Below are positions 2,895 to 62,597 of a DNA stretch of 64,000 nucleotides, piece after piece. Source of the stretch: Gammaproteobacteria bacterium. Its GTDB lineage: Bacteria; Pseudomonadota; Gammaproteobacteria; JAJFKG01. The position numbers were made by a program, and so were the translations under genes. The notes beneath the pieces are model-generated. The model did not search any database. It had not been told where the DNA came from and saw nothing but the letters and a program-made list of their open reading frames with translations. The stretch is from NCBI GenBank assembly GCA_021773335.1, contig JAJFKG010000006.1:99409-163408 (forward strand). The letters are read 5' to 3'. The stretch's first letter is position 1. Each line of letters opens with the position of its first letter.

Positions 2895-3806
2895 ATGTTT
2901 AAACGTAACAAGCCACTTTTACAAACACTGCTTCAAGCCAAGTTTTACTTACAAAGTAACAAAGCCTGTAGAATACCAATCCGCCGCAGTGCATTAGCCG
3001 CAAGTGCTTTTTACACTTTACTTTTGCTTACTCTCTATAAAGTATTGCGAGTGACTCCTGCCTTTATTAACTATCTTTATACGCTGAGTGTTTTAATACT
3101 CATCGTATGGCCACTCTTAGCTATGTATATTTCGCGTCAACAAGCTAGCCTAAGTACGTTATTAGCGAAAGGCCTAACTAATAAACAATTGTCACACCTT
3201 GATGCCGCACGCCAAGTAAGCGATCAGCGCGGTGCCGTTTGGCAATTTACATTTTTACGTATTATAGGTGGTATAGGCGTATTTAATCTGCAAAAACCCG
3301 GTTATTTCGGTTGGTTAGTTAGCAAACGTTTTGCCTATTTACATGGCCGCTGGGCTGAGGTGCGACATTTTTTACTACCAGCACTAATGATCGAGCGGCA
3401 TAACTTTCAACAAACCACTGCAAAGCTTCAGTCATTGCTATTACAAAATCCTAGGCGCATTGCGCTCATAACCCACATCGATTATCTCTTTCGTATTGTT
3501 GGGATACTTGTCGGTCCCATCAATATGTTATGCCTCTTAGTGGGTGTTGTGCTTGGCCATTATTTCGCGACCGACTTACCTAAAGATAGTTTATTTTTTA
3601 TTGGTAATTTTCACTTTTCGTGGATACCTGTTTACGGCTTATTAGCCATTGAATTGATCTTACTTGGAATCGCTTACATCATTTTAACCATGCTACAAAC
3701 CTGCTGCGCCAGTATTGCTTATTTAGCATTATTCCATCCGCATACCTTAAGCGATAAGTACCGAAAAGCTGCACAGCAGTGGTTGGCTACGTTAAACATC
3801 ACTTAA
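2895..3806 (+). CDS. hypothetical polytopic inner-membrane protein (303 aa), no recognisable family
   Basis: Long ORF rich in hydrophobic segments. It lies 13 nt after the preceding gene in an AT-rich stretch. Confidence 0.5.
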   Translation: MFKRNKPLLQTLLQAKFYLQSNKACRIPIRRSALAASAFYTLLLLTLYKVLRVTPAFINYLYTLSVLILIVWPLLAMYISRQQASLSTLLAKGLTNKQLSHLDAARQVSDQRGAVWQFTFLRIIGGIGVFNLQKPGYFGWLVSKRFAYLHGRWAEVRHFLLPALMIERHNFQQTTAKLQSLLLQNPRRIALITHIDYLFRIVGILVGPINMLCLLVGVVLGHYFATDLPKDSLFFIGNFHFSWIPVYGLLAIELILLGIAYIILTMLQTCCASIAYLALFHPHTLSDKYRKAAQQWLATLNIT

Positions 3807-3822
3807 TACGCAACTGGGTTGC

Positions 3823-3850
3823 ATATCAAGGCTACGATTGCCTGATGCTT
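3823..3850. repeat. degenerate solo REP-like palindrome (GCATATCAAGGCTACGATTGCCTGATGC)
   Basis: An imperfect inverted repeat that carries the TATCAAGGCTAC tail shared with the REP clusters at 11996-12250 and 57130-57310. It sits just after the stop of the 2895..3806 gene. Confidence 0.4.
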
Positions 3851-3943
3851 ATAACCTTATGTGTACACTTATATAAATTGCCTCACTAAACACGCGTATG
3901 CTAACATCCACCTATTATCTATCTTATCAATCAGAGGAATGGC

Positions 3944-4645
3944 ATGGCGGGCTTCAATAAATGTGTCGATAATTATGCTCAAGCACTTTCTGGCCTAACC
4001 AATAATATGACTGTCATGGTCGGTGGCTTTGGTCTATGTGGCATCCCCGAAGGTTTAATTAAGACTGTTTATGAGAATGGCATAATGGGTTTGAGGTGCA
4101 TTTCAAACAATGCCGGCGTCGATGGTTTTGGCTTGGGGCTTTGGCTAGAAAAACGTCAAATCAAAACTATGATTGGATCCTATGTCGGTGAAAATGCCTT
4201 ATTTGAACAACTCTCAATTAGCGGTGAAATGGAAGTAATTCTCACCCCACAAGGTACGCTAGCCGAAAAGATTCGTGCTGGTGGGGCAGGCATACCTGCT
4301 TTTTACACCGCAACCGGTTACGGCACTCCGGTAGCAGAAGGCAAAGAAATAAAAGCATTTAATGGCAAACCGTATGTGCTTGAAGAATCCTTCTTTGCTG
4401 ACTTTGCTCTCGTTAAAGCTTGGAAAGCCGACACCATGGGCAACCTAATCTATCGCAAAACCGCGATGAATTTTAATCCCATGATGGCGACTGCGGCCAA
4501 AATAACTGTTGCCGAAGTTGAAGAAATTGTTGCGCCGGGTGAATTGGATCCTGAAAACATTCACACGCCGGGCATTTATGTCAATCGTGTGATTAAAGGC
4601 TCATTTGAAAAACGTATCGAACAACGCACCATTAAAACTAGTTAG
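3944..4645 (+). CDS. scoA: 3-oxoacid CoA-transferase subunit A (succinyl-CoA:3-ketoacid CoA transferase, ScoA/AtoD-like)
   Basis: 233 aa with the characteristic CoA-transferase family I alpha-subunit sequence ([10 protein letters not shown]...). Confidence 0.9.
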
Positions 4646-4653
4646 GGATCAAC

Positions 4654-5313
4654 ATGGCATTAAGCAGAGAACAGATCGCTCAACGCATCGCCCAAGAATT
4701 ACAGGATGGTTACTACGTCAATCTTGGTATCGGCATTCCTACCTTGGTCGCCAATTATATTCCGGAGGGCATGCATGTCATGTTGCAATCGGAAAACGGT
4801 TTGCTCGGCATGGGTGAATTTCCCACAGAAGCAACTATTGATCCTGATTTGATTAATGCTGGTAAACAAACGGTGACCGCCGCCACCGGTGCTTGTTATT
4901 TTTCATCAGCCGATAGCTTTGCTATGATCCGTGGCGGCCATATTGACTTAACTGTGCTAGGCGCTTTTGAAGTTGATCAGACCGGTAGCATTGCCTCTTG
5001 GATGATACCTGGTAAATTGATTAAAGGCATGGGTGGCGCAATGGATTTAGTCGCTGGCGCGCATAACATTGTTGTTGCCATGGCGCACGCTAATAAAAAG
5101 GGCGAATCTAAACTCTTAGAAAAATGCACCCTACCACTAACCGGCGTACACTGTATCAAGAAAATCGTCACCGATCTCGCGTGCTTGGAAATCAAAGAGG
5201 GTGCTTTTCATTTGCTTGAGCGCGCCCCAGGTGTGGAAGTTGAGACCATCAAACAGCTGACTGCCGGCAAGTTAGTTATTCCGACTAATGTGCCAGAAAT
5301 GTGTTTTGATTAA
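4654..5313 (+). CDS. scoB: 3-oxoacid CoA-transferase subunit B (ScoB/AtoA-like)
   Basis: 219 aa beta-subunit family sequence (...LGIGIPT...SENG...), starting 9 nt after scoA. Confidence 0.9.
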   Translation: MALSREQIAQRIAQELQDGYYVNLGIGIPTLVANYIPEGMHVMLQSENGLLGMGEFPTEATIDPDLINAGKQTVTAATGACYFSSADSFAMIRGGHIDLTVLGAFEVDQTGSIASWMIPGKLIKGMGGAMDLVAGAHNIVVAMAHANKKGESKLLEKCTLPLTGVHCIKKIVTDLACLEIKEGAFHLLERAPGVEVETIKQLTAGKLVIPTNVPEMCFD

Positions 5314-5357
5314 ATAATTCAGCGTGCCCCTTTACGAGATGTCTTTAAAAAGTCACC

Positions 5358-6734
5358 TCACAGAATATAACGGCTTAAATCTTCATCCTGCGCCAAGTCA
5401 GTTAAAAACTTGTTAACATAAGCCGCATTGATAGCGACACTATCACCACCCATATCGGATGCTTTGAAGGATAAGTCTTCAAATAAACGTTCCATCACTG
5501 TGTGTAAACGCCGTGCACCAATATTTTCTGCCTGCTCGTTGACTTGCCAGGCGATTTCCGCAAGACGCTGGATAGCATCGTCATGGAACTCAACACTTAC
5601 ACCTTCGGTTTGCAGCAAGGCAGAATATTGCTTAGTCAGTGAGGCATCGGGCTCAGTTAAGATACGCTTGAAGTCTTCAGTCTTCAGAGCATCAAGCTCA
5701 ACACGGATCGGTAAACGGCCTTGCAACTCAGGAATCAAGTCAGATGGCTTAGTCAGGTGAAAAGCACCAGAGGCGATAAATAAAATATGATCGGTATTAA
5801 TCATGCCATATTTGGTTGAGACAGTACAACCTTCAACTAGTGGCAATAGATCGCGTTGCACACCTTCTCGCGAAACATCGGCGCCACTGCTATGGTCCGC
5901 ACGCCGACAGACTTTATCGATTTCATCGATAAATACAATACCGTGCTGCTCAACACTCTCTAATGCTTGTGCTTTTACATCATCATCATTCGTTAATTTA
6001 GCCGCCTCTTCTTCTTGCAGTACTTTGAAAGCAGCTTTAACTTTCATTTTACGCGCTTTGGTTGGGCGCGAGGACGACATATTTTGGAACATGTCTTGTA
6101 ATTGCGAAGTCATTTCTTCCATGCCTGGGGGCGCCATGATTTCAACACCAATCTGTGTACCAACCACTTCGATCTCAATGTCTTTATCGTCCAATGCACC
6201 CTCGCGCAATTTCTTACGGAAGACTTGCCGTGTATGCGAATCTTTTTCTGCTTTTTTCTCACTTTCTTCGCTGGGCTCACCCTCAAACCCGCGTGCCGGA
6301 GGTAACAATGCATCTAAAATACGCTCTTCTGCAGCTTCTTCGGCAACATGCCTAAATTTATTCATTTCTTCTTCGCGCGTTTGCTTAATGGCTAAATCCA
6401 TTAAATCACGCACTATTGATTCAACATCACGCCCTACATAACCAACTTCAGTAAACTTAGTCGCTTCGACTTTGATGAAAGGCGCGCGCGCCAAACGCGC
6501 CAAGCGTCGCGCGATTTCCGTTTTACCTACTCCAGTAGGACCGATCATTAAGATATTTTTAGGCGTAATTTCCGCACGCAATTCTTCGTCAACTTGCATA
6601 CGTCGCCAGCGATTACGCAGTGCGATCGCTACTGCACGTTTTGCCTTATCTTGGCCCACAATAAAACGATTTAATTCATGGACGATTTCTTTAGGAGTCA
6701 TAACGGTGCGGTTTGAAAGTGTTTCAGACATCAT
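5358..6734 (-). CDS. hslU: ATP-dependent protease ATPase subunit HslU
   Basis: [34 protein letters not shown]...[15 protein letters not shown] aligns with E. coli HslU. The ORF is open to 6776 but that first codon is TTG, so the start is set at the internal ATG-ATG (MMSETLS); the exact start is uncertain. Confidence 0.9.
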
Positions 6735-40253: not shown

Positions 40254-41093
40254 TCATTGCCAGGTATCATTTGGATCTTTTACTTGCCGTAATCCCTTAA
40301 TGCTATACCGCGAATCACGCGGCAAACAAAACATATTGACTGAGACTGTGTTTGCAAAAATATTCTCAGCATTTTGAAAATAGTTACTTGGATTATACAG
40401 TGGTGGTAAATGCCAATATAGCGCGTAATCTAATGACATAATATATTCGATTAACGCAGATGACTTTTCCGGGCGGTCATTCTCAACATACAATAGGGGT
40501 TGGTGTTGTTTTATCGTTTGTTGGGCGCCCATCAATGCTTCCTTTTCCATACCCTCAATATCCAGTTTAATGAAATCACAGTTAGATAGGTGTAACGAAT
40601 CAATGGTGAGGACAGGGACAGACTCACCCTTTTCATACCCACCCAAGGCTAAGCCGCCATAATTAGCTTCATGTGCATAATCCAGTGGTGGTATTAGCAC
40701 ACTACCAGGCTGCTCGCCAACCGCACGCTGATAACAATGTACATTAACTCGACTATTTAGTGCCATATTGGCACATAGCGTTTGAAAAACTATTCTCTGT
40801 GGCTCAAAGGCAATCACCGCACCGGTATGAGTTACAGCATGTGAAAAATATAAGGTGTGCGCACCAATATTAGCGCCCATATCTAACACCACATCATCGG
40901 GCTTGAGAAATTTTTTGAATAATTCTATTTCAGCTTCAGAAAATTCACCATAGTTTTGAAACGAACGTCCAACATAGAGATCATTTTTGTTATACAACAT
41001 ATAACCATGCCGACACGCCTTAAGTTCATTAATAGCCGTTGTATAGATTGCTTTTGCAGCCATGTGCCTCATTCCATTGTTTATGCGGATCAC
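40254..41093 (-). CDS. FkbM-family SAM-dependent methyltransferase
   Basis: [16 protein letters not shown] and the downstream FkbM-domain blocks. Its ATG overlaps the icmF stop in an ATGA arrangement. Confidence 0.8.
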
Positions 41094-44000
41094 ATATTGC
41101 GACGATATTGTCCACCCACTTCAAAAAATGCTTCAGTTAATTGTCCAAGCGAGCACACTCTTACCGCATCCATTAAAACGGCAAAAACATTTTCATCCTT
41201 ACGCGCAACCTGTTTGATACGTTCTAACATAGATGCAGCCGCTTGTTTATGTTTAGACTGAAAAGCATGTAAGCGTTTTATCTGGTTCTGCTTTTCTTCT
41301 TCCGTGGAGCGCGCCAACTCAATTGTTGTTTCTTGTGGCTCGGGGTGCGGATTACGGAATGTGTTTACACCGACTAATGGCAGGCTACCATCGTGTTTAC
41401 GCATCTCATAATACAAAGACTCTTCTTGAATACGTCCACGTTGATAGCCTGTTTCCATAGCTCCCAGTACTCCGCCTCGCTCACTGATACGCTCTAGCTC
41501 TTGTAAGACAGCTTCTTCGACTAAATCTGTTAATTCATCAATGATAAAGGCACCTTGGTTGGGATTTTCGTTTTTCGCTAACCCCCACTCCTTGTTGATG
41601 ATTAACTGAATTGCTTGTGCACGACGTACAGATTCTTCCGTTGGCGTTGTGAGCGCCTCATCATAGGCATTCGTATGCAAACTATTACAATTATCATAAA
41701 TAGCCTCCAAGGCTTCCAAGGTCGTACGAATATCATTGAATGCCATTTCTTGAGCGTGTAATGAGCGCCCAGAAGTTTGGATATGATATTTTAATTTTTG
41801 ACTGCGCGCATTTGCCCCATAACGTTCGCGCATTGCAATCGCCCATATGCGGCGTGCAACACGTCCCATCACGGTATATTCTGGGTCCATACCATTGGAA
41901 AAGAAAAACGATAAGTTAGGCGCAAAATCATCGATCTTTAAACCTCGCGCCAAATACGCTTCAACGTAAGTAAATCCATTTGCCAGAGTAAATGCTAACT
42001 GACTAATTGGATTCGCGCCTGCTTCAGCAATATGGTAACCTGAGATCGAAACCGAATAAAAATTTCGCACACTTTGCTCAACAAAATAAGCTTGTATATC
42101 TCCCATCATACGTAGACTGAATTCAGTTGAAAAAATACAGGTATTCTGCCCTTGATCTTCTTTAAGAATATCGGCTTGCACTGTACCACGCACGTTTTGC
42201 AACGCATACGCTCTCACCGCCTGTGCTTCTTGCTCACTCGGCATCCGTTTATTCTCTTGGATAAACTTCTCTAACTGCTGATCGATGGCCGTACATAAAA
42301 ACATGGCCAAAATCGTTGGTGCTGGACCATTGATTGTCATAGACACTGATGTTTTAGGATCACATAAATCAAACCCATCAAATAAAGCATGCATATCATC
42401 TAAGGTAGCGACCGACACGCCCGAGTTACCGATCTTTCCATAAATATCCGGACGCTCATGTGGATCGCAACCATATAGAGTCACTGAATCAAATGCTGTT
42501 GATAAACGTTTAGCTGGTGCATGTTCAGATAAATACTTAAAACGTCGGTTGGTACGAAATGGGTCTCCTTCGCCGGCAAACATCCGCCCAGGATCTTCAC
42601 CTTGGCGTTTAAACGGAAAAGTACCCGCAGTAAAGGGAAAATGTCCCGGTAAATTTTCGCGTTTTAGCCAATTCAACAATTGACCTTTATCTTGATATTT
42701 AGGCAAACTTACCTTCGGAATTTTCGTGCCAGAAAGACTCGTATGAAACAATTGCGTATGGATCTCTTTATCACGAACCTTTACTACGTATTCTTCTTCT
42801 AAATAGCGCGCAACTATACTTGGCCAAGCTTCTAATAGGGCTTGCGTCTCTTTATCTAAACTAACCTCACGGTCTTTTATCAAGCTTGTCAAGCGTTTGT
42901 CTTGCTCACCACCGCCACTACCCAACAGCAGCTGAGCGGCTTGTAATTGTTGTAGTTCTGTCACTATCTGTGCTTGCTCACGTGTGTGCTGGTGAAAGCT
43001 GTGTATCGTATCAACAATATCTGCTAAATAGCGTTGGCGCTGCCCAGGTACGATGATCGTATGGTCTTGGGAAATTTTAGTTTGCAACAGAGGTAACTCA
43101 GTTTGCCAATCACCTTTATCTCTAGTTTTAAACAACTCTAATAAGCCTTGATAAAGCGCACTCACCCCTTCGTCATTAAATTTTGCAGCAATCGTACCAT
43201 AGACTGGCATAGCTTCTGGAGCTGAACCAAAAGCTTCGCGATTACGTTGCATTTGTTTACGCACGTCACGCAATGCGTCATCAGCACCACGACGATCGAA
43301 TTTATTAATCGCGACTATGTCAGCAAAATCTAACATGTCGATTTTTTCTAACTGGCTTGCAGCACCGAATTCCGGTGTCATTACATATAAAGAGCAATCA
43401 ACATAAGGCACAATACCAGCATCACCCTGTCCAATCCCGGGTGTTTCAACAATAACTAAATCAAAGTTTGCGGCTTTACACGCTTGAATAATCTGCGTCA
43501 GGCAGGGAATAATTTCAGTCTGTGCAGAGCGCGTCGCTAATGAACGAAAAAACACATTACCATTGTCAATCGCATTCATGCGGATCCTATCACCCAATAG
43601 CGCGCCACCACTCTTACGTTTACTGGGATCTAATGCGAGTACAGCAATTGCCAAATCACCTTTATCATTGCGAAAACGACGAATTAGCTCATCAGTCAAA
43701 GATGATTTACCAGCACCACCCGTGCCGGTAATCCCTAGCACTGGAATATGTGTACGTTGTTCAGCTACTGCGGCAATATGCTGCTGACACGCTTGCGCTA
43801 ACTTATCATTTTCCAATTCAGTAATCAGGCGCGCTAAATGGCATTGCGCGTTGCGATCACGGCTTGCTTTGTCAAGCGCAGCTATATCCAATGACATCGT
43901 GTTACATAAATCACTATCGATACGCTCCAACATATCATTGATCAAACCCTGCAAACCAACACGCTGGCCATCAGCAGGAGAATAAAGACGCTCGACACCA

Positions 44001-44359
44001 TAGGCCTGTAATTCAGCAACCTCCTCGGGGGTAATAACGCCACCACCACCACCGAAGACCTTAATGTGTTCACCGCCTAGCGTTTTTAACTGATCGATGA
44101 TGTATTTGAAAAATTCAATATGCCCACCTTGGTAAGAACTGATCGCGATAGCATGCACATCCTCTTGCAATGCAGCATTGACAATTTCGGCAACGGAACG
44201 GTTATGTGCTAAATGAATAACCTCGGCACCACTCGCTTGTAGAATACGGCGCATGACATTAATTGCAGCATCATGCCCATCAAATAAACTCGCTGCTGTG
44301 ATAAAACGCAGGTGGTGTTTTGGTTGATATTTTACCACCTGTTTTTTAATGTTTGTCAT
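41090..44359 (-). CDS. icmF: fused isobutyryl-CoA mutase IcmF (B12-binding domain + MeaB-like G-protein + acyl-CoA mutase catalytic domain)
   Basis: 1089 aa. The N-terminal DxHxxG B12-binding motif (FDGHDAAIN), the central P-loop GTPase ([12 protein letters not shown]), and the C-terminal methylmalonyl-CoA-mutase-like TIM barrel appear in the IcmF-specific order. Confidence 0.85.
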
Positions 44360-58392: not shown

Positions 58393-59217
58393 TTATTCGT
58401 GGGGACACGTCAGCTCATTAACCCAAGGCATCGCCATTCGTAGAAGCTTATCCACACTAAAATAAAGCGCCAGACTCATTAGAGTAACGGTAACTAACGC
58501 CGCAAACATGACATCAATTTGCATCCGGGCATTAGCATTTAACATTAAAAAACCCAAACCCGCACTTGACCCTACCCACTCACCAACGACTGCACCAATC
58601 GGTGCGATCGCAGCGGCAATGCGTAAGCCCGAAGCTAAATTCGGTAAAGCGGCGGGCACACGAATATGCCAAAGTATGCGCCAGCGTGAACCGCCCATGG
58701 TTTTAGCCAAATATAACCATCCTGGATTAGTGCGCCGTAAACCATCAAAAAATGCAGTGGTTACCGGAAAATATAACATCAAAATCGTCGTCGCTATTTT
58801 AGATGCCATACCATAACCAAACCACACAACAAACAAAGGAGCTATGGCAAAAGTTGGTAGTGCTTGGCTAATAACTAATATCGGCAATAACCAGTGCCGT
58901 AAAGGCTGAAAATACGCAATAATAAGAGCTGACATAACGCCTAGTAACGAACCACACAATAAACCTAATAAAGTTTCTGTTAACGTTAGCATCCCCTGAT
59001 GGAGCAATAAGCTACGTTGTTGATAAGCAGTTTTTAATACCGCCCCTGGCCCCGGTAAAATATAGGGTGGCAACGATCCCAACCAAACGATAGCTTGCCA
59101 AATAATTAGTAAACCGATCGTTAGCAGTATTATTCTAGATAATGGATTAATTCCCATTTTTTTCGTTAAACGAATTCGTCGATCGTAAGAAACTGGGAAC
59201 ACCCTAACATCATCCAT
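58393..59217 (-). CDS. ABC transporter permease (NitT/TauT family; ThiX-like)
   Basis: 6-TM permease with the EAA-type loop (LASGLRIAAAIAPIGAVVGE). Confidence 0.8.
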   Translation of the reverse strand: MDDVRVFPVSYDRRIRLTKKMGINPLSRIILLTIGLLIIWQAIVWLGSLPPYILPGPGAVLKTAYQQRSLLLHQGMLTLTETLLGLLCGSLLGVMSALIIAYFQPLRHWLLPILVISQALPTFAIAPLFVVWFGYGMASKIATTILMLYFPVTTAFFDGLRRTNPGWLYLAKTMGGSRWRILWHIRVPAALPNLASGLRIAAAIAPIGAVVGEWVGSSAGLGFLMLNANARMQIDVMFAALVTVTLMSLALYFSVDKLLRMAMPWVNELTCPHE

Positions 59218-59977
59218 TACGTAAGCACTCCAACAATTGTGCCTGCAAATGTAATAATTCAGTATCTTGGATATTACGAGGCTTTTCGCCGTTTAAGTGC
59301 AAAGGAGCTTTCAGCTTGGCCGGTCGTCCCTTCATGATCAACACATTATCAGCAAGGCGCAGTGCTTCTAATGGATCATGTGTCACTAGTAATACGGTTT
59401 TGTCTTTGAGTAAACGTGCAGCAATTTCTTGCAAGCGTAAGCGAGTGATTGCATCTAATTTTGAAAATGGTTCATCCATAAGTACGATAGGGCGATCTTC
59501 AATTAGGGTGCGTACTAAAGCGACTCGTTGCCGCATCCCCCCTGAGAGTGCTGCTGGTCGGCGCTCAATAACATCTCGCAAACCGACTTCCGCTAACAAA
59601 CTACGCGCCCTGCGTGCTATCGAGCTTTTATTAGCTCCCCGCAAGCTTGCACCTAATAAGACATTGTCAAACACCGACAACCAAGGTAGCAGCAAGTCAT
59701 CCTGTCCCATGTAAGCAAGATTCTCACGTACAATCCAATCGGCATCGCAGCTAATTGTAGCCTGCATCTGCGTCTGCCTTTGCTTAGGAATAATATCAGC
59801 AAGCAAATAGAGTAAACTACTTTTGCCGACACCGCTGGGTCCCAGCAGACAACTCCATTGCCCTAGCGGGATGCTACAATCGAGGTTCGAAAAGACGGCT
59901 TGCTGACCATAACGTAATGTCGCATTACGGATATGCAAGGCAGGGCACGGCTGCGTATCATTTACTTGGTAAATCAT
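59210..59977 (-). CDS. ABC transporter ATP-binding protein (ThiZ-like)
   Basis: Walker A GPSGVGKSS, the ABC signature LSGGMRQRV, and Walker B LLMDEPFSKLD. It overlaps the permease by 8 nt. Confidence 0.85.
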   Translation of the reverse strand: MIYQVNDTQPCPALHIRNATLRYGQQAVFSNLDCSIPLGQWSCLLGPSGVGKSSLLYLLADIIPKQRQTQMQATISCDADWIVRENLAYMGQDDLLLPWLSVFDNVLLGASLRGANKSSIARRARSLLAEVGLRDVIERRPAALSGGMRQRVALVRTLIEDRPIVLMDEPFSKLDAITRLRLQEIAARLLKDKTVLLVTHDPLEALRLADNVLIMKGRPAKLKAPLHLNGEKPRNIQDTELLHLQAQLLECLRNG

Positions 59978-59982
59978 GTCAC

Positions 59983-60073
59983 GCTTTCCTACGTCGGTGT
60001 TAACCGTATCAGGTTCAAAGGGTCGTTTTACGCGAATCTTGCCGTAAAACCTCTCAGCCGCAGCTCCCCTAGG
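59983..60073 (-). promoter_or_regulatory. TPP (thiamine pyrophosphate) riboswitch / THI element
   Basis: The minus-strand RNA reads GGGGAGCUGCGGCUGAGAGG...ACGACCCUUUGAACCUGAUACGGUUAACACCGACGUAGGAAAGCGUGACAUG. It matches the THI-box consensus block for block (GGGG.GC..GCUGAGA...ACCC.UUGAACCUGAUC.GGUUAAUACC.GCGUAGGGAA). The AGGAAAG at its 3' end serves as the SD for the ATPase gene, 6 nt before the ATG. Confidence 0.85.
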
Positions 60074-60599
60074 GTCAAGCCCGCTATTCTACAGCAGTAC
60101 TGCAAAAGTCCAAGTTTTTAACAAAAATATATTCCCGCCAACTACTACATTGCCCATTTTGTTTGTAAGCAATATCTCAACATCAAGTAAGCCATATCAG
60201 CTATTTATCAGTGCCACATCTGACAACATTTATTCGAAAAATTGTATCCATTTGTTTTAATTAAATATTAATATAGATTTCTTGGCTCTTTACTGTATCA
60301 AACTTAAGCAAGACAAATTTTGACCCTTGTGAAAAAAATAAGACCTGGTAAATTCACGCCCACAACCACAGTATAGCGACGAATTTTATACCCCAATATT
60401 ATTAGTCACGGCATAGCGTTAGGTAGCGGACAGGGAAGTCCGCCTTTATATTTGCCAGCAACTAACTGTAACTGTAGGCAGTATTGAGATGTACGGGTTG
60501 TCATGCTGGCAAGCAATGTGCATAAAAACAGTCAGCAATAGGGACGCCCCCTCATTTTAAGTGCTTTCGTTGGGAAATTTGAGTACATTTCTCAATAAC

Positions 60600-60706
60600 A
60601 GTTTGCAAGGAAGCGATTGTAGACATGGATGTCTAGCAAGGATGCAATTGAGGGCAAGGAGTGCCCACAAGGCCTGGGAAGGGCGGGCTCAACCCGCCCT
60701 TTCTTT
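60600..60706 (+). ncRNA. CsrA/RsmA-sequestering small RNA of the RsmY/RsmZ/CsrB class (5' end uncertain)
   Basis: There are four stem-loops with GGA in the loop: gcAAGGAAgc (60605-60614), agacaUGGAugucu (60621-60634), gcAAGGAugc (60636-60645) and ggcAAGGAgugcc (60654-60666). The second matches the CsrA SELEX consensus RUACARGGAUGU. The RNA ends in the terminator GGGCGGGC-UCAA-CCCGCCC plus UUUCUUUUU (60681-60709). The palindrome TTGAG-N7-CTCAA at 60579-60595 lies upstream. No ORF is present. Confidence 0.7.
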
Positions 60707-60827
60707 TTATGCTCACCCCCGCTCGTAAATCCGCTTATTGACCATACTAAGTTGCTATTACTTTAACAAAACGGCAAAATAATACCTCTTCATTGTGAGT
60801 ACCATCTCACACACAACAGGTTATTTA

Positions 60828-61082
60828 ATGAGTAATTCTCGACTTAAAAAACGCTTTATCGCTGGGGCGAATTGTCCGCATTGTGGCGAACTCGATAAAA
60901 TAGCGTGGTACTGCGATACATTGCAGCCAGACGATGATTATATCGCTTGTGTCCGCTGTGATTATACAGTTTCACAACAGGATATATTAAACCTCGCCAA
61001 AGCAACGACATCAGCTCCGCAAACAATTACTCCCGCAAATAGTACTAAAGAACAAGCTATCGTATGGCACGCAAAAACATAA
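60828..61082 (+). CDS. yheV: YheV-family putative zinc-ribbon protein (DUF2387)
   Basis: [22 protein letters not shown]...ACVRCDY matches E. coli YheV (RKRFIAGAKCPACQAQDSM...). The start is set at MSNSRL. Confidence 0.7.
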   Translation: MSNSRLKKRFIAGANCPHCGELDKIAWYCDTLQPDDDYIACVRCDYTVSQQDILNLAKATTSAPQTITPANSTKEQAIVWHAKT

Positions 61083-61091
61083 GAAACTTCT

Positions 61092-62597
61092 ATGCAACAA
61101 TCCTCTATGCTTGAATCGAATAATCAGCCAAGCGCTGTAGAAAACTCGCGCCAGCCACGCGGCTTGTATGTGCTGTTTTTTACTGAAATGTGGGAACGCT
61201 TTGGCTATATGGCTGTGCAAATGTTATTGGTTCTCTATCTGATCAAGAAATTTCATTATGCCGATACACATGCTTATACGCTATTAGCAACCTTTGATGT
61301 ATTGCTGTTTACCACACCAGTGATTGGCGGCTACCTTGCTGATCGTTATTTAGGATTTCGTAAAGCCATTTTTATCGGGGGTGGCTTATTAACGCTAGGT
61401 TATTTTGGCTTAGCTCTCCATGGCTACGGGCACATCTTACCACTGTCTTTAGCTTGTCTAGCTGCTGGTAATGGATTGTTTAAAGGTAATGTCTCTAGCT
61501 TACTGGGTACGTTATATTTAGCGAATGATTTTCGCCGAGATAGTGGCTTTACTTTGTTTTATATGGGTATTAATCTCGGTACATTTATCTCAAGCCTGAT
61601 CTGTGGCTACGTAGCGATAAAAATAGGGTGGGGCTACGGATTCGGATTGGCTGGCGTTGGTATGTTGATTGGTATCTTGACATTTGCTCTAGGACAAACG
61701 CGCTTAAAAGGCAAGGGTCTCCCTCCCGAACCTAGTGAACTGGCTTCACCCCGCTTTTTATTCTTGGGAGTAAAGCACTTTATTTATATCGGCATTACTG
61801 TAGCTATTTTTATTATCGCGCTTCTTATCGAACATAGCGCTATCGTAGACTGGGGTTTAGTCATTTTCAGCATGCTGACTCTTATCTATGTCATTTCGCT
61901 GGCATTGCAACAACCGAAACAACAGCGTAATAAATTATTCGTGCTATTGCTGTTAATGCTTTTCTCCATTGTATTTTGGGCCATCTATCAACAAATGTTT
62001 CTATCCAGTACGTTGTTTATCAATCGTGAAGTCAACCGCCATGTGTTTGACTGGCTAATTCCCACCCCCATGTTTACCGCTCTTAATCCATTCTTAATTA
62101 TTATTTTTGCACCGTTGTTGGCTGTACTTTGGATGAAATTATCAAAACATAAACGCAACATTTCGATCGCGGGGAAATTTGCATTAGCCATGCTCATGAT
62201 TGGCTTAGGCTATTATTTATTGGCTTATGGTATTTCTAGTGCCGCTAATAAGGCAGCCGTTGCTGTCTATTGGGTTTTCATCTGCTATTTTTTGCAAACT
62301 ATAGGTGAACTTTTCTTATCACCGATTGGCTTATCTGCTGTTACATCGCTGACACCACCGCGCTTTGTGGGCATGATGATGGGTGTTTGGTTTCTATCAT
62401 TCGCGGCATCTAATGCCTTGGCAGGCAAGCTCGCAAATTTGGCCAATATCCCAAAAACAGAGACTGACCCTGTTCTCCTCGCTAGCACTTACCACCATGT
62501 GTTTACGATATTTGGCTATCTCGGCATAGGTATTGGTATTTGCTTGCTTCTATTGACACCCTTGCTAAAAAAAATAACCGACAAGCAAAACACGTAA
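61092..62597 (+). CDS. proton-dependent oligopeptide transporter (POT/PTR2 family; DtpA/DtpT-like)
   Basis: FTEMWERFGYMAVQMLLVLYL matches the PTR2 signature ExxERFxYYG. It is a 501-aa, 14-TM type. Confidence 0.85.
   Translation: MQQSSMLESNNQPSAVENSRQPRGLYVLFFTEMWERFGYMAVQMLLVLYLIKKFHYADTHAYTLLATFDVLLFTTPVIGGYLADRYLGFRKAIFIGGGLLTLGYFGLALHGYGHILPLSLACLAAGNGLFKGNVSSLLGTLYLANDFRRDSGFTLFYMGINLGTFISSLICGYVAIKIGWGYGFGLAGVGMLIGILTFALGQTRLKGKGLPPEPSELASPRFLFLGVKHFIYIGITVAIFIIALLIEHSAIVDWGLVIFSMLTLIYVISLALQQPKQQRNKLFVLLLLMLFSIVFWAIYQQMFLSSTLFINREVNRHVFDWLIPTPMFTALNPFLIIIFAPLLAVLWMKLSKHKRNISIAGKFALAMLMIGLGYYLLAYGISSAANKAAVAVYWVFICYFLQTIGELFLSPIGLSAVTSLTPPRFVGMMMGVWFLSFAASNALAGKLANLANIPKTETDPVLLASTYHHVFTIFGYLGIGIGICLLLLTPLLKKITDKQNT

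Follow-up and report, generated by a model that had tools for sequence, protein, structure and literature searches.

A candidate CsrA/RsmA-titrating small RNA with a weak resemblance to RsmZ in a gammaproteobacterial genome

The small RNAs (sRNAs) known to regulate CsrA were shown by Kulkarni et al. (2006; PMC1488887) to have five sequence features in common: an intergenic location, a high density of AGGA/ARGGA motifs, a rho-independent terminator, GGA triplets placed in loops or free regions, and a conserved upstream site of the UvrY/GacA type. The CsrA-binding consensus obtained by SELEX is RUACARGGAUGU, and one CsrA dimer can bridge sites lying 10-63 nt apart (PMC7652899). The documented GacA/UvrY boxes are 18-bp palindromes with a 6-6-6 layout, of the form TGTAAG-N6-CTTACA: in Pseudomonas aeruginosa they are centred at -75 (rsmY) and -196 (rsmZ) (PMC4950607), while at Escherichia coli csrB the box TGTGAGAGATCTCTTACA is centred at -183, with a second cross-linking site near -35 (PMC4682653). 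Here we describe a locus at 60597-60709 on the plus strand of a 64-kb stretch of gammaproteobacterial DNA (the window, meaning the whole stretch analysed), with the sequence ACAGUUUGCAAGGAAGCGAUUGUAGACAUGGAUGUCUAGCAAGGAUGCAAUUGAGGGCAAGGAGUGCCCACAAGGCCUGGGAAGGGCGGGCUCAACCCGCCCUUUCUUUUU. Judged from its sequence, this locus quite probably encodes a free-standing sRNA that titrates CsrA/RsmA and is RsmZ/RsmY-like in action; it is possibly also a distant homologue of these RNAs. The assignment draws on a cluster of motifs, fold z-scores, the accessibility of the GGA triplets and a sub-threshold match to the PrrB_RsmZ family.

A cluster of GGA hairpins ahead of a terminator

The locus lies inside a 747-nt gap between a minus-strand unit that ends at 60080 and the DUF2387 gene that starts at 60828 (+), and so has the intergenic location listed by Kulkarni et al. 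The 3' end of the candidate RNA falls in the U-run at 60705-60708, and its 5' end at about 60596-60606, or upstream to about 60533. The motif CAWGGA occurs four times within 55 nt of the plus strand, with starts at 60606, 60624, 60637 and 60655. The entire 64-kb window contains 64 copies on both strands, which elsewhere never number more than two per 100 nt, and by a Poisson estimate the chance of any four falling together in 55 nt somewhere in the window is ~5e-5. When AGGA is counted in the style of CSRNA_FIND, this is the sole plus-strand locus with three AGGA in 60 nt; when AGGA and ARGGA are counted together, it ranks at the top of the plus strand in both 60- and 90-nt windows. The high motif density of the known sRNAs is therefore found here as well, as measured against a background of one 64-kb window, not a whole genome.

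The original prediction, made from the letters of the sequence, had proposed four hairpins whose loops carry AGGA or UGGA within a non-coding stretch of about 100 nt, and all four are found in the stretch that it had indicated. Hairpin 1 (60603-60616; UUGC-AAGGAA-GCGA; -2.5 kcal/mol) exposes a GGA at 60609 with an unpaired probability of 0.91-0.98, and hairpin 2 (60620-60635; UAGACA-UGGA-UGUCUA; -4.9 kcal/mol, z = -2.7) exposes its GGA with a probability of 0.88-0.99. Hairpin 3 (60636-60645; GCA-AGGA-UGC) is weak at -1.7 kcal/mol, with its GGA unpaired at 0.63-0.91; hairpin 4 (60652-60666; GGGCA-AGGAG-UGCCC) is the strongest at -8.2 kcal/mol (z = -2.9), with its GGA unpaired at 0.88-1.00. All are on the plus strand; the energies are those of each hairpin folded alone, and the unpaired probabilities come from a partition function computed for the complete RNA. 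The four loop triplets keep unpaired probabilities of 0.63-1.00 for any assumed 5' end in 60590-60600, and the folding check that the original prediction had proposed thus came out in its favour. One more GGA, at 60677, is hidden within the stem of the terminator, so that four of the five GGA triplets occupy predicted hairpin loops, again in agreement with the shared features of the known sRNAs. The whole stretch folds at -42.7 kcal/mol, with z = -2.8 relative to shuffled sequences.

Hairpin 2 carries the site AGACAUGGAUGU, which has 10 of 12 positions in common with the SELEX consensus, among them the invariant ACA and GGA as well as the near-invariant GU; its earlier description as an almost exact copy is a fair one. 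The spacings from GGA to GGA along the RNA are 18, 13 and 18 nt. These fall within the range of 10-63 nt, and one CsrA dimer could therefore bridge two adjoining loops. At the 3' end stands an intrinsic terminator (60676-60709, +) with a 12-bp stem at 60676-60704 containing eight G-C pairs, a CUCAA loop of 5 nt and a following UUUU. It folds at -22.3 kcal/mol (z = -3.9), which bears out the strong terminator seen in the original prediction and supplies the rho-independent 3' end of the Kulkarni list.

Two small open reading frames (ORFs) of 45 and 55 aa overlap the RNA. A Pfam search of both returned no family match, and the ATG at 60629 is preceded by no visible ribosome-binding site. Given this lack of family matches, and since both frames extend across the terminator, the locus is regarded as non-coding. 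Placement of the RNA on the minus strand was rejected, since that strand has neither GGA motifs nor a U-run after the hairpin.

The core of the RNA is internally repetitive: two adjacent modules of 31 nt (60605-60635 and 60636-60666) are identical at 20 of 31 positions in a direct alignment. Each comprises a weak GC-closed AAGGAW hairpin, a linker RAUUG and a strong WGGA hairpin, and they share the segment GCAAGGAWGCRATTG (GCAAGGAWGCRAUUG). The strong stems differ between the modules on both arms (UAGACA/UGUCUA vs GGGCA/UGCCC) with pairing kept, and these differences are the sole covariation-like evidence at hand. The core thus appears, from this alignment, to have arisen by duplication of a two-hairpin module of 31 nt followed by compensatory change. 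The duplication is absent from the output of Tandem Repeats Finder.

In mechanistic terms, the RNA would be about 105-113 nt long (possibly up to ~175 nt if transcription starts near 60533) and would serve as a protein sponge for CsrA/RsmA. Each CsrA dimer would bridge two neighbours among the four A/U-GGA loops, giving about two dimers per RNA, and build-up of the RNA would pull CsrA away from mRNA targets of lower affinity, which would then be freed from repression. The strong intrinsic terminator would release the RNA as a separate transcript. Within this scheme we infer the transcription of the RNA, the presence of CsrA in the genome and its binding to the loops, and control by a regulator of the GacA/UvrY type.

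Family resemblance, neighbouring genes and relatives

A permissive Rfam search was run on 60350-60850 (501 nt) with 4227 families and E-values corrected for all of them. It aligned PrrB_RsmZ (RF00166) to 60600-60706 over model positions 1-133, at 22.2 bits and E = 0.0043. The alignment runs end to end and is collinear throughout: a GGA hairpin, an AGGA hairpin, AAGGA, a further GGA hairpin and the terminator follow one another in both. PrrB_RsmZ has the better E-value of the two weak Rfam matches that cover the locus, and is a family that the original prediction had named beforehand; its RsmY/RsmZ-like identity is upheld to this extent, but the score remains below the gathering threshold. At the level of the model alignment, the resemblance to RsmZ is real, but it falls short of what inclusion in the Rfam family requires. 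A permissive search of 60060-60620 returned nothing.

On the upstream side, the gap is bounded by a minus-strand unit consisting of a TPP (thiamine pyrophosphate) riboswitch (59969-60080; 63.5 bits in Rfam vs a gathering score of 54.3), an ATP-binding cassette (ABC) ATPase behind it (59210-59977) and a permease (58393-59217). Proteins related to the ATPase are named by JGI as hydroxymethylpyrimidine transport proteins, i.e. components of a thi-type ABC operon for a thiamine precursor. On the downstream side, the plus strand encodes a DUF2387 metal-binding protein of 84 aa (60828-61082) and, after it, a POT-family peptide transporter (61092-62597). The riboswitch unit runs divergently from the Rsm-like RNA. 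In Legionella pneumophila a TPP riboswitch is fine-tuned by CsrA (PMC5338858), and the juxtaposition of the two elements at this locus may be fortuitous.

In all collections searched the genome stands isolated. Its best relatives by protein identity reach 39-47% for DUF2387, 56-58% for the ABC ATPase and 48% for the POT transporter. For HslU the closest named relatives (~75%) belong to Endozoicomonas, Oceanospirillales, Idiomarina, Colwellia and Marinobacterium, with Alteromonadales among the orders represented, and not to Legionella. A 584-aa HslU from a metagenomic contig (422-2176 of k141_788976, ENA ERZ27296373) was rejected as a closer relative: it is a chimeric ORF in which a duplicated internal segment inflates the score, the duplication being likely a mis-assembly. 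Among 80 genome loci with relatives of the POT transporter (a collection that does not include the window's own genome), none has a GGA cluster. The DUF2387-POT pair recurs in the distant Legionellales metagenome-assembled genome SAT3 (3726-5482 of the locus from PAMH01000034.1), where a small ORF with paired Cys-x-x-Cys motifs is followed by a POT gene, and the pair is, on this recurrence, a conserved unit; no GGA-rich RNA lies upstream of the pair in SAT3. Nor was any such RNA found on three contigs with DUF2387 homologues. A metagenome search with the pattern GACATGGATGT...GCAAGGA...CAAGGAG gave two matches, both of which were dismissed as chance occurrences inside a G+C-rich coding region, and blastn against plasmid and phage collections returned nothing relevant.

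Promoter candidates and palindromic boxes

A relaxed promoter scan gave as its best candidate TTGTCA-17-CATAAA, with a start near 60533, along with TTGGGA-18-AATAAC with a start near 60606 and a weak -35 with TACATT and a start near 60596. A sigma-54-like match of the GG-N10-GC type, TGGCAAGCAATGTGCA at 60507-60522 (+), was dropped as evidence, the window containing three such matches with 3.0 expected; it overlaps the best sigma-70-like candidate. Further upstream, 60426-60452 (+) contains a perfect 6-6-6 palindrome, GCGGAC-AGGGAA-GTCCGC, followed by CTTTATATTT in the manner of a terminator. Its hairpin has a GGA in the loop, shares 10 of 12 positions with the SELEX consensus, and has no obvious gene to terminate. 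A second sRNA ending there was considered and rejected, as the preceding 100 nt are unstructured (z = +0.26) and contain one GGA only.

Three palindromic boxes lie in the gap. The first, box A (60579-60595; TTGAGTACATTTCTCAA), is the palindrome to which the original prediction had ascribed the shape of GacA/LetA/UvrY activating sequences. It is present, and no other exact TTGAG-N7-CTCAA occurs in the window; its layout is 5-7-5, with a spacer of 7 and not 6, and it abuts the 5' end of the RNA, ending 4-5 nt ahead of the first structured base. Its centre contains a possible -10 hexamer, TACATT (60584-60589), and if transcribed it would form a hairpin of -3.4 kcal/mol. Were the RNA to start near 60597, box A would cover the -10 region, and its position is, because of this overlap, unlike that of an activating sequence.

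Box B (60794-60811; TGTGAGTACCATCTCACA) is a perfect 6-6-6 palindrome, TGTGAG-N6-CTCACA, and an exact fit to TGTNAG-N6-CTNACA, which follows the terminator at a distance of 85 nt and precedes the DUF2387 start codon by 17 nt. Exact fits to this pattern are expected 0.065 times per shuffled window and were observed twice, box B being the only one near the locus. The other, TGTCAGCAAAATCTAACA at 43318-43335, lies inside the coding region for IcmF (fused isobutyryl-CoA mutase/GTPase; 41090-44359, minus) and is probably due to chance. As RNA, box B would form the tip of a hairpin at 60784-60821 (-11.5 kcal/mol, z = -2.2) in which the AGG of the probable ribosome-binding site is base-paired, and on the folding model it may be an mRNA element rather than a DNA site. 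It was also considered as a CRP site and rejected, its TGTGA/TCACA halves being 8 nt apart, not 6. Box C (60164-60181; TGTAAGCAATATCTCAAC), whose left half-site is a perfect TGTAAG, is located some 435 nt upstream of the RNA and, on its other side, roughly 85-90 nt ahead of where the divergent riboswitch transcript starts. Taken by itself it is at chance level, with three mismatches to the consensus and 25 such sites in the window where 31 are expected. Boxes B and C are alike at 12 of 16 positions, and are the only matches in the window to TRAG-N5-TCTCA, a pattern derived from those two boxes.

The sole unusual feature of the locus is thus that GacA-like palindromes flank the gene on both sides, and not at the canonical upstream distance. 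That boxes A, B and C are all sites for a GacA/UvrY-type regulator, in an arrangement undescribed for any Csr/Rsm sRNA gene, strikes us as rather improbable. Such a regulator might loop the short gene between its flanking sites or occlude its -10 region; alternatively, it might act directly on the thi-transporter and DUF2387-POT operons in addition to the sRNA. If true, direct control of these operons would run counter to what has been found in Pseudomonas and E. coli, where GacA/UvrY works almost exclusively by way of the sRNA genes.

Alternative explanations and comparison with described systems

Several observations weigh against a CsrA/RsmA-titrating sRNA. At gathering thresholds, Rfam returns the TPP riboswitch alone for the whole window, with no member of the Csr/Rsm clan (CL00106), no CsrB and no CsrC; and the PrrB_RsmZ match, having half of the gathering score of 44, leaves the RNA outside that family. 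The original prediction had named a covariance-model match to a different family as evidence against itself, and one such match covers the locus: ncS01, an unrelated Burkholderia sRNA, scores 24.2 bits (E = 0.042), but this is below its gathering score of 58 and comes chiefly from the terminator. No relatives were found in the collections searched, and hence there is no evidence from conservation or between-species covariation. Hairpins 3 and 1 have very little stability (-1.7 and -2.5 kcal/mol), and the exposed GGA motifs number only four, compared with the seven cited for RsmY and RsmW (PMC4950607). A scan for consensus sigma-70 promoters found none for the RNA, and a start near 60533, as in the best relaxed candidate, would yield an RNA of 177 nt with a 65-nt leader, two more GGA and a changed predicted fold. 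No activator box of canonical form stands upstream at any of the known distances, and neither csrA nor gacA/uvrY homologues occur in the 64-kb window.

The main rival reads the locus as a 5' leader or attenuator acting in cis on the DUF2387-POT operon, in which a factor binding the GGA loops (CsrA or another) would decide whether the terminator at 60676-60704 forms and, with it, whether transcription reaches the transporter genes. The operon is indeed on the same strand, with the terminator 119 nt upstream of the DUF2387 start codon, and the consensus scan finds no promoter between the two, although a moderate promoter-like TTGACC-17-TTTAAC (60739-60767), recognized by eye only, could serve the operon alone. 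The 5' arm of the terminator carries a GGA (GGGAAGGG, 60676-60683), and L. pneumophila CsrA is known to modulate termination and riboswitch leaders (PMC5338858). However, the predicted ensemble contains no anti-terminator pairing, the terminator having a pairing probability near 1 in every fold; the GGA cluster is at least 150 nt from the ribosome-binding site, unlike in typical CsrA-controlled leaders; and the overall architecture, together with the Rfam match, is that of the free Rsm RNAs. We consider a leader unlikely on these grounds, and rank the two remaining alternatives below it.

An sRNA with a different action, e.g. base-pairing with mRNAs, in which the GGA loops are incidental or secondary, would accord with there being just four such loops and with the similar-sized weak matches to unrelated families (ncS01 and, at 14.7 bits, the sRNA family STnc250), which mark the terminator and the general shape as unspecific. 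Yet the fourfold CAWGGA (~5e-5 by chance), the constant placement of GGA in a loop and the SELEX-like site are what a CsrA ligand needs, and no single-stranded seed region stands out besides the GGA loops, making this reading distinctly improbable. Least probable of all is that there is no functional RNA, the terminator simply standing behind a chance or decaying GGA-rich stretch, or a tiny coding ORF. The missing evidence of conservation and the two overlapping ORFs would permit it; the rarity of the motif cluster and the fold z-scores speak against it, as do the failings of those ORFs noted above, and the terminator would have no convergent or upstream plus-strand gene to serve, the nearest upstream genes being on the minus strand.

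The titrating sRNA hence remains the favoured reading. If correct, it would provide a Csr/Rsm antagonist RNA for an otherwise unsampled gammaproteobacterial lineage, and with it a handle on the CsrA regulon of that lineage and on the signal pathway that controls it. It would also illustrate how the logic of motif density and terminator picks out RNAs of this kind that score below threshold with covariance models trained on Pseudomonas and enterobacteria. The kind of RNA is already well known, and the locus is a plausible further example of it that opens no new question.

Relative to the described systems, four of the five Kulkarni features are present at the locus, and for the upstream site there are candidate boxes only, each off-spacing, mismatched or downstream. 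The closest match is PrrB/RsmZ of Pseudomonas, with a similar size (107 nt matched vs a 133-position model) and the same order of elements from the 5' end, in which the AAGGA between the second and the last GGA hairpin is weakly structured. The terminator core, GGGCGGG-CUCAA-CCCGCCC, is near-identical to the family consensus GGgcGGg-UcAa-cCCgcCC. Unlike in that family, about 25 model positions are deleted here, one GGA region among them, leaving four exposed GGA only, and the TGTAAG-N6-CTTACA box at about -196 of P. aeruginosa rsmZ has no counterpart (PMC4950607). With L. pneumophila RsmY and RsmZ the RNA shares its proposed function and size class, and those too were first predicted from AGGA density and a terminator (PMC1488887). 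Their flanks are however different, namely gyrB/lpp0005 for rsmY and lpp1662/lpp1663 for rsmZ (PMC1488887, Table 1), as against the thi-type ABC operon and DUF2387-POT here; with the HslU relatives also lying outside Legionella, the Legionella (LetA) framing of the original prediction found no support.

E. coli CsrB and CsrC are comparable in the sponge principle and in the presentation of GGA in hairpin loops. They are several times longer, with many more sites. The UvrY box of csrB has a TGTGAG half-site identical to that of box B, but lies upstream at -183, whereas box B is downstream of the RNA (PMC4682653). Finally, RsmW of P. aeruginosa offers a parallel in several respects: it is an RsmA-binding RNA of the RsmY/RsmZ type in which just 3 of 7 GGA loops are exposed and for which no GacA box stands at the proper position, a weak site about 830 bp upstream being the nearest (PMC4950607). 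An upstream box is, given this precedent, not obligatory for an RNA of this type. The present locus differs from RsmW in being free-standing, with divergent upstream genes.

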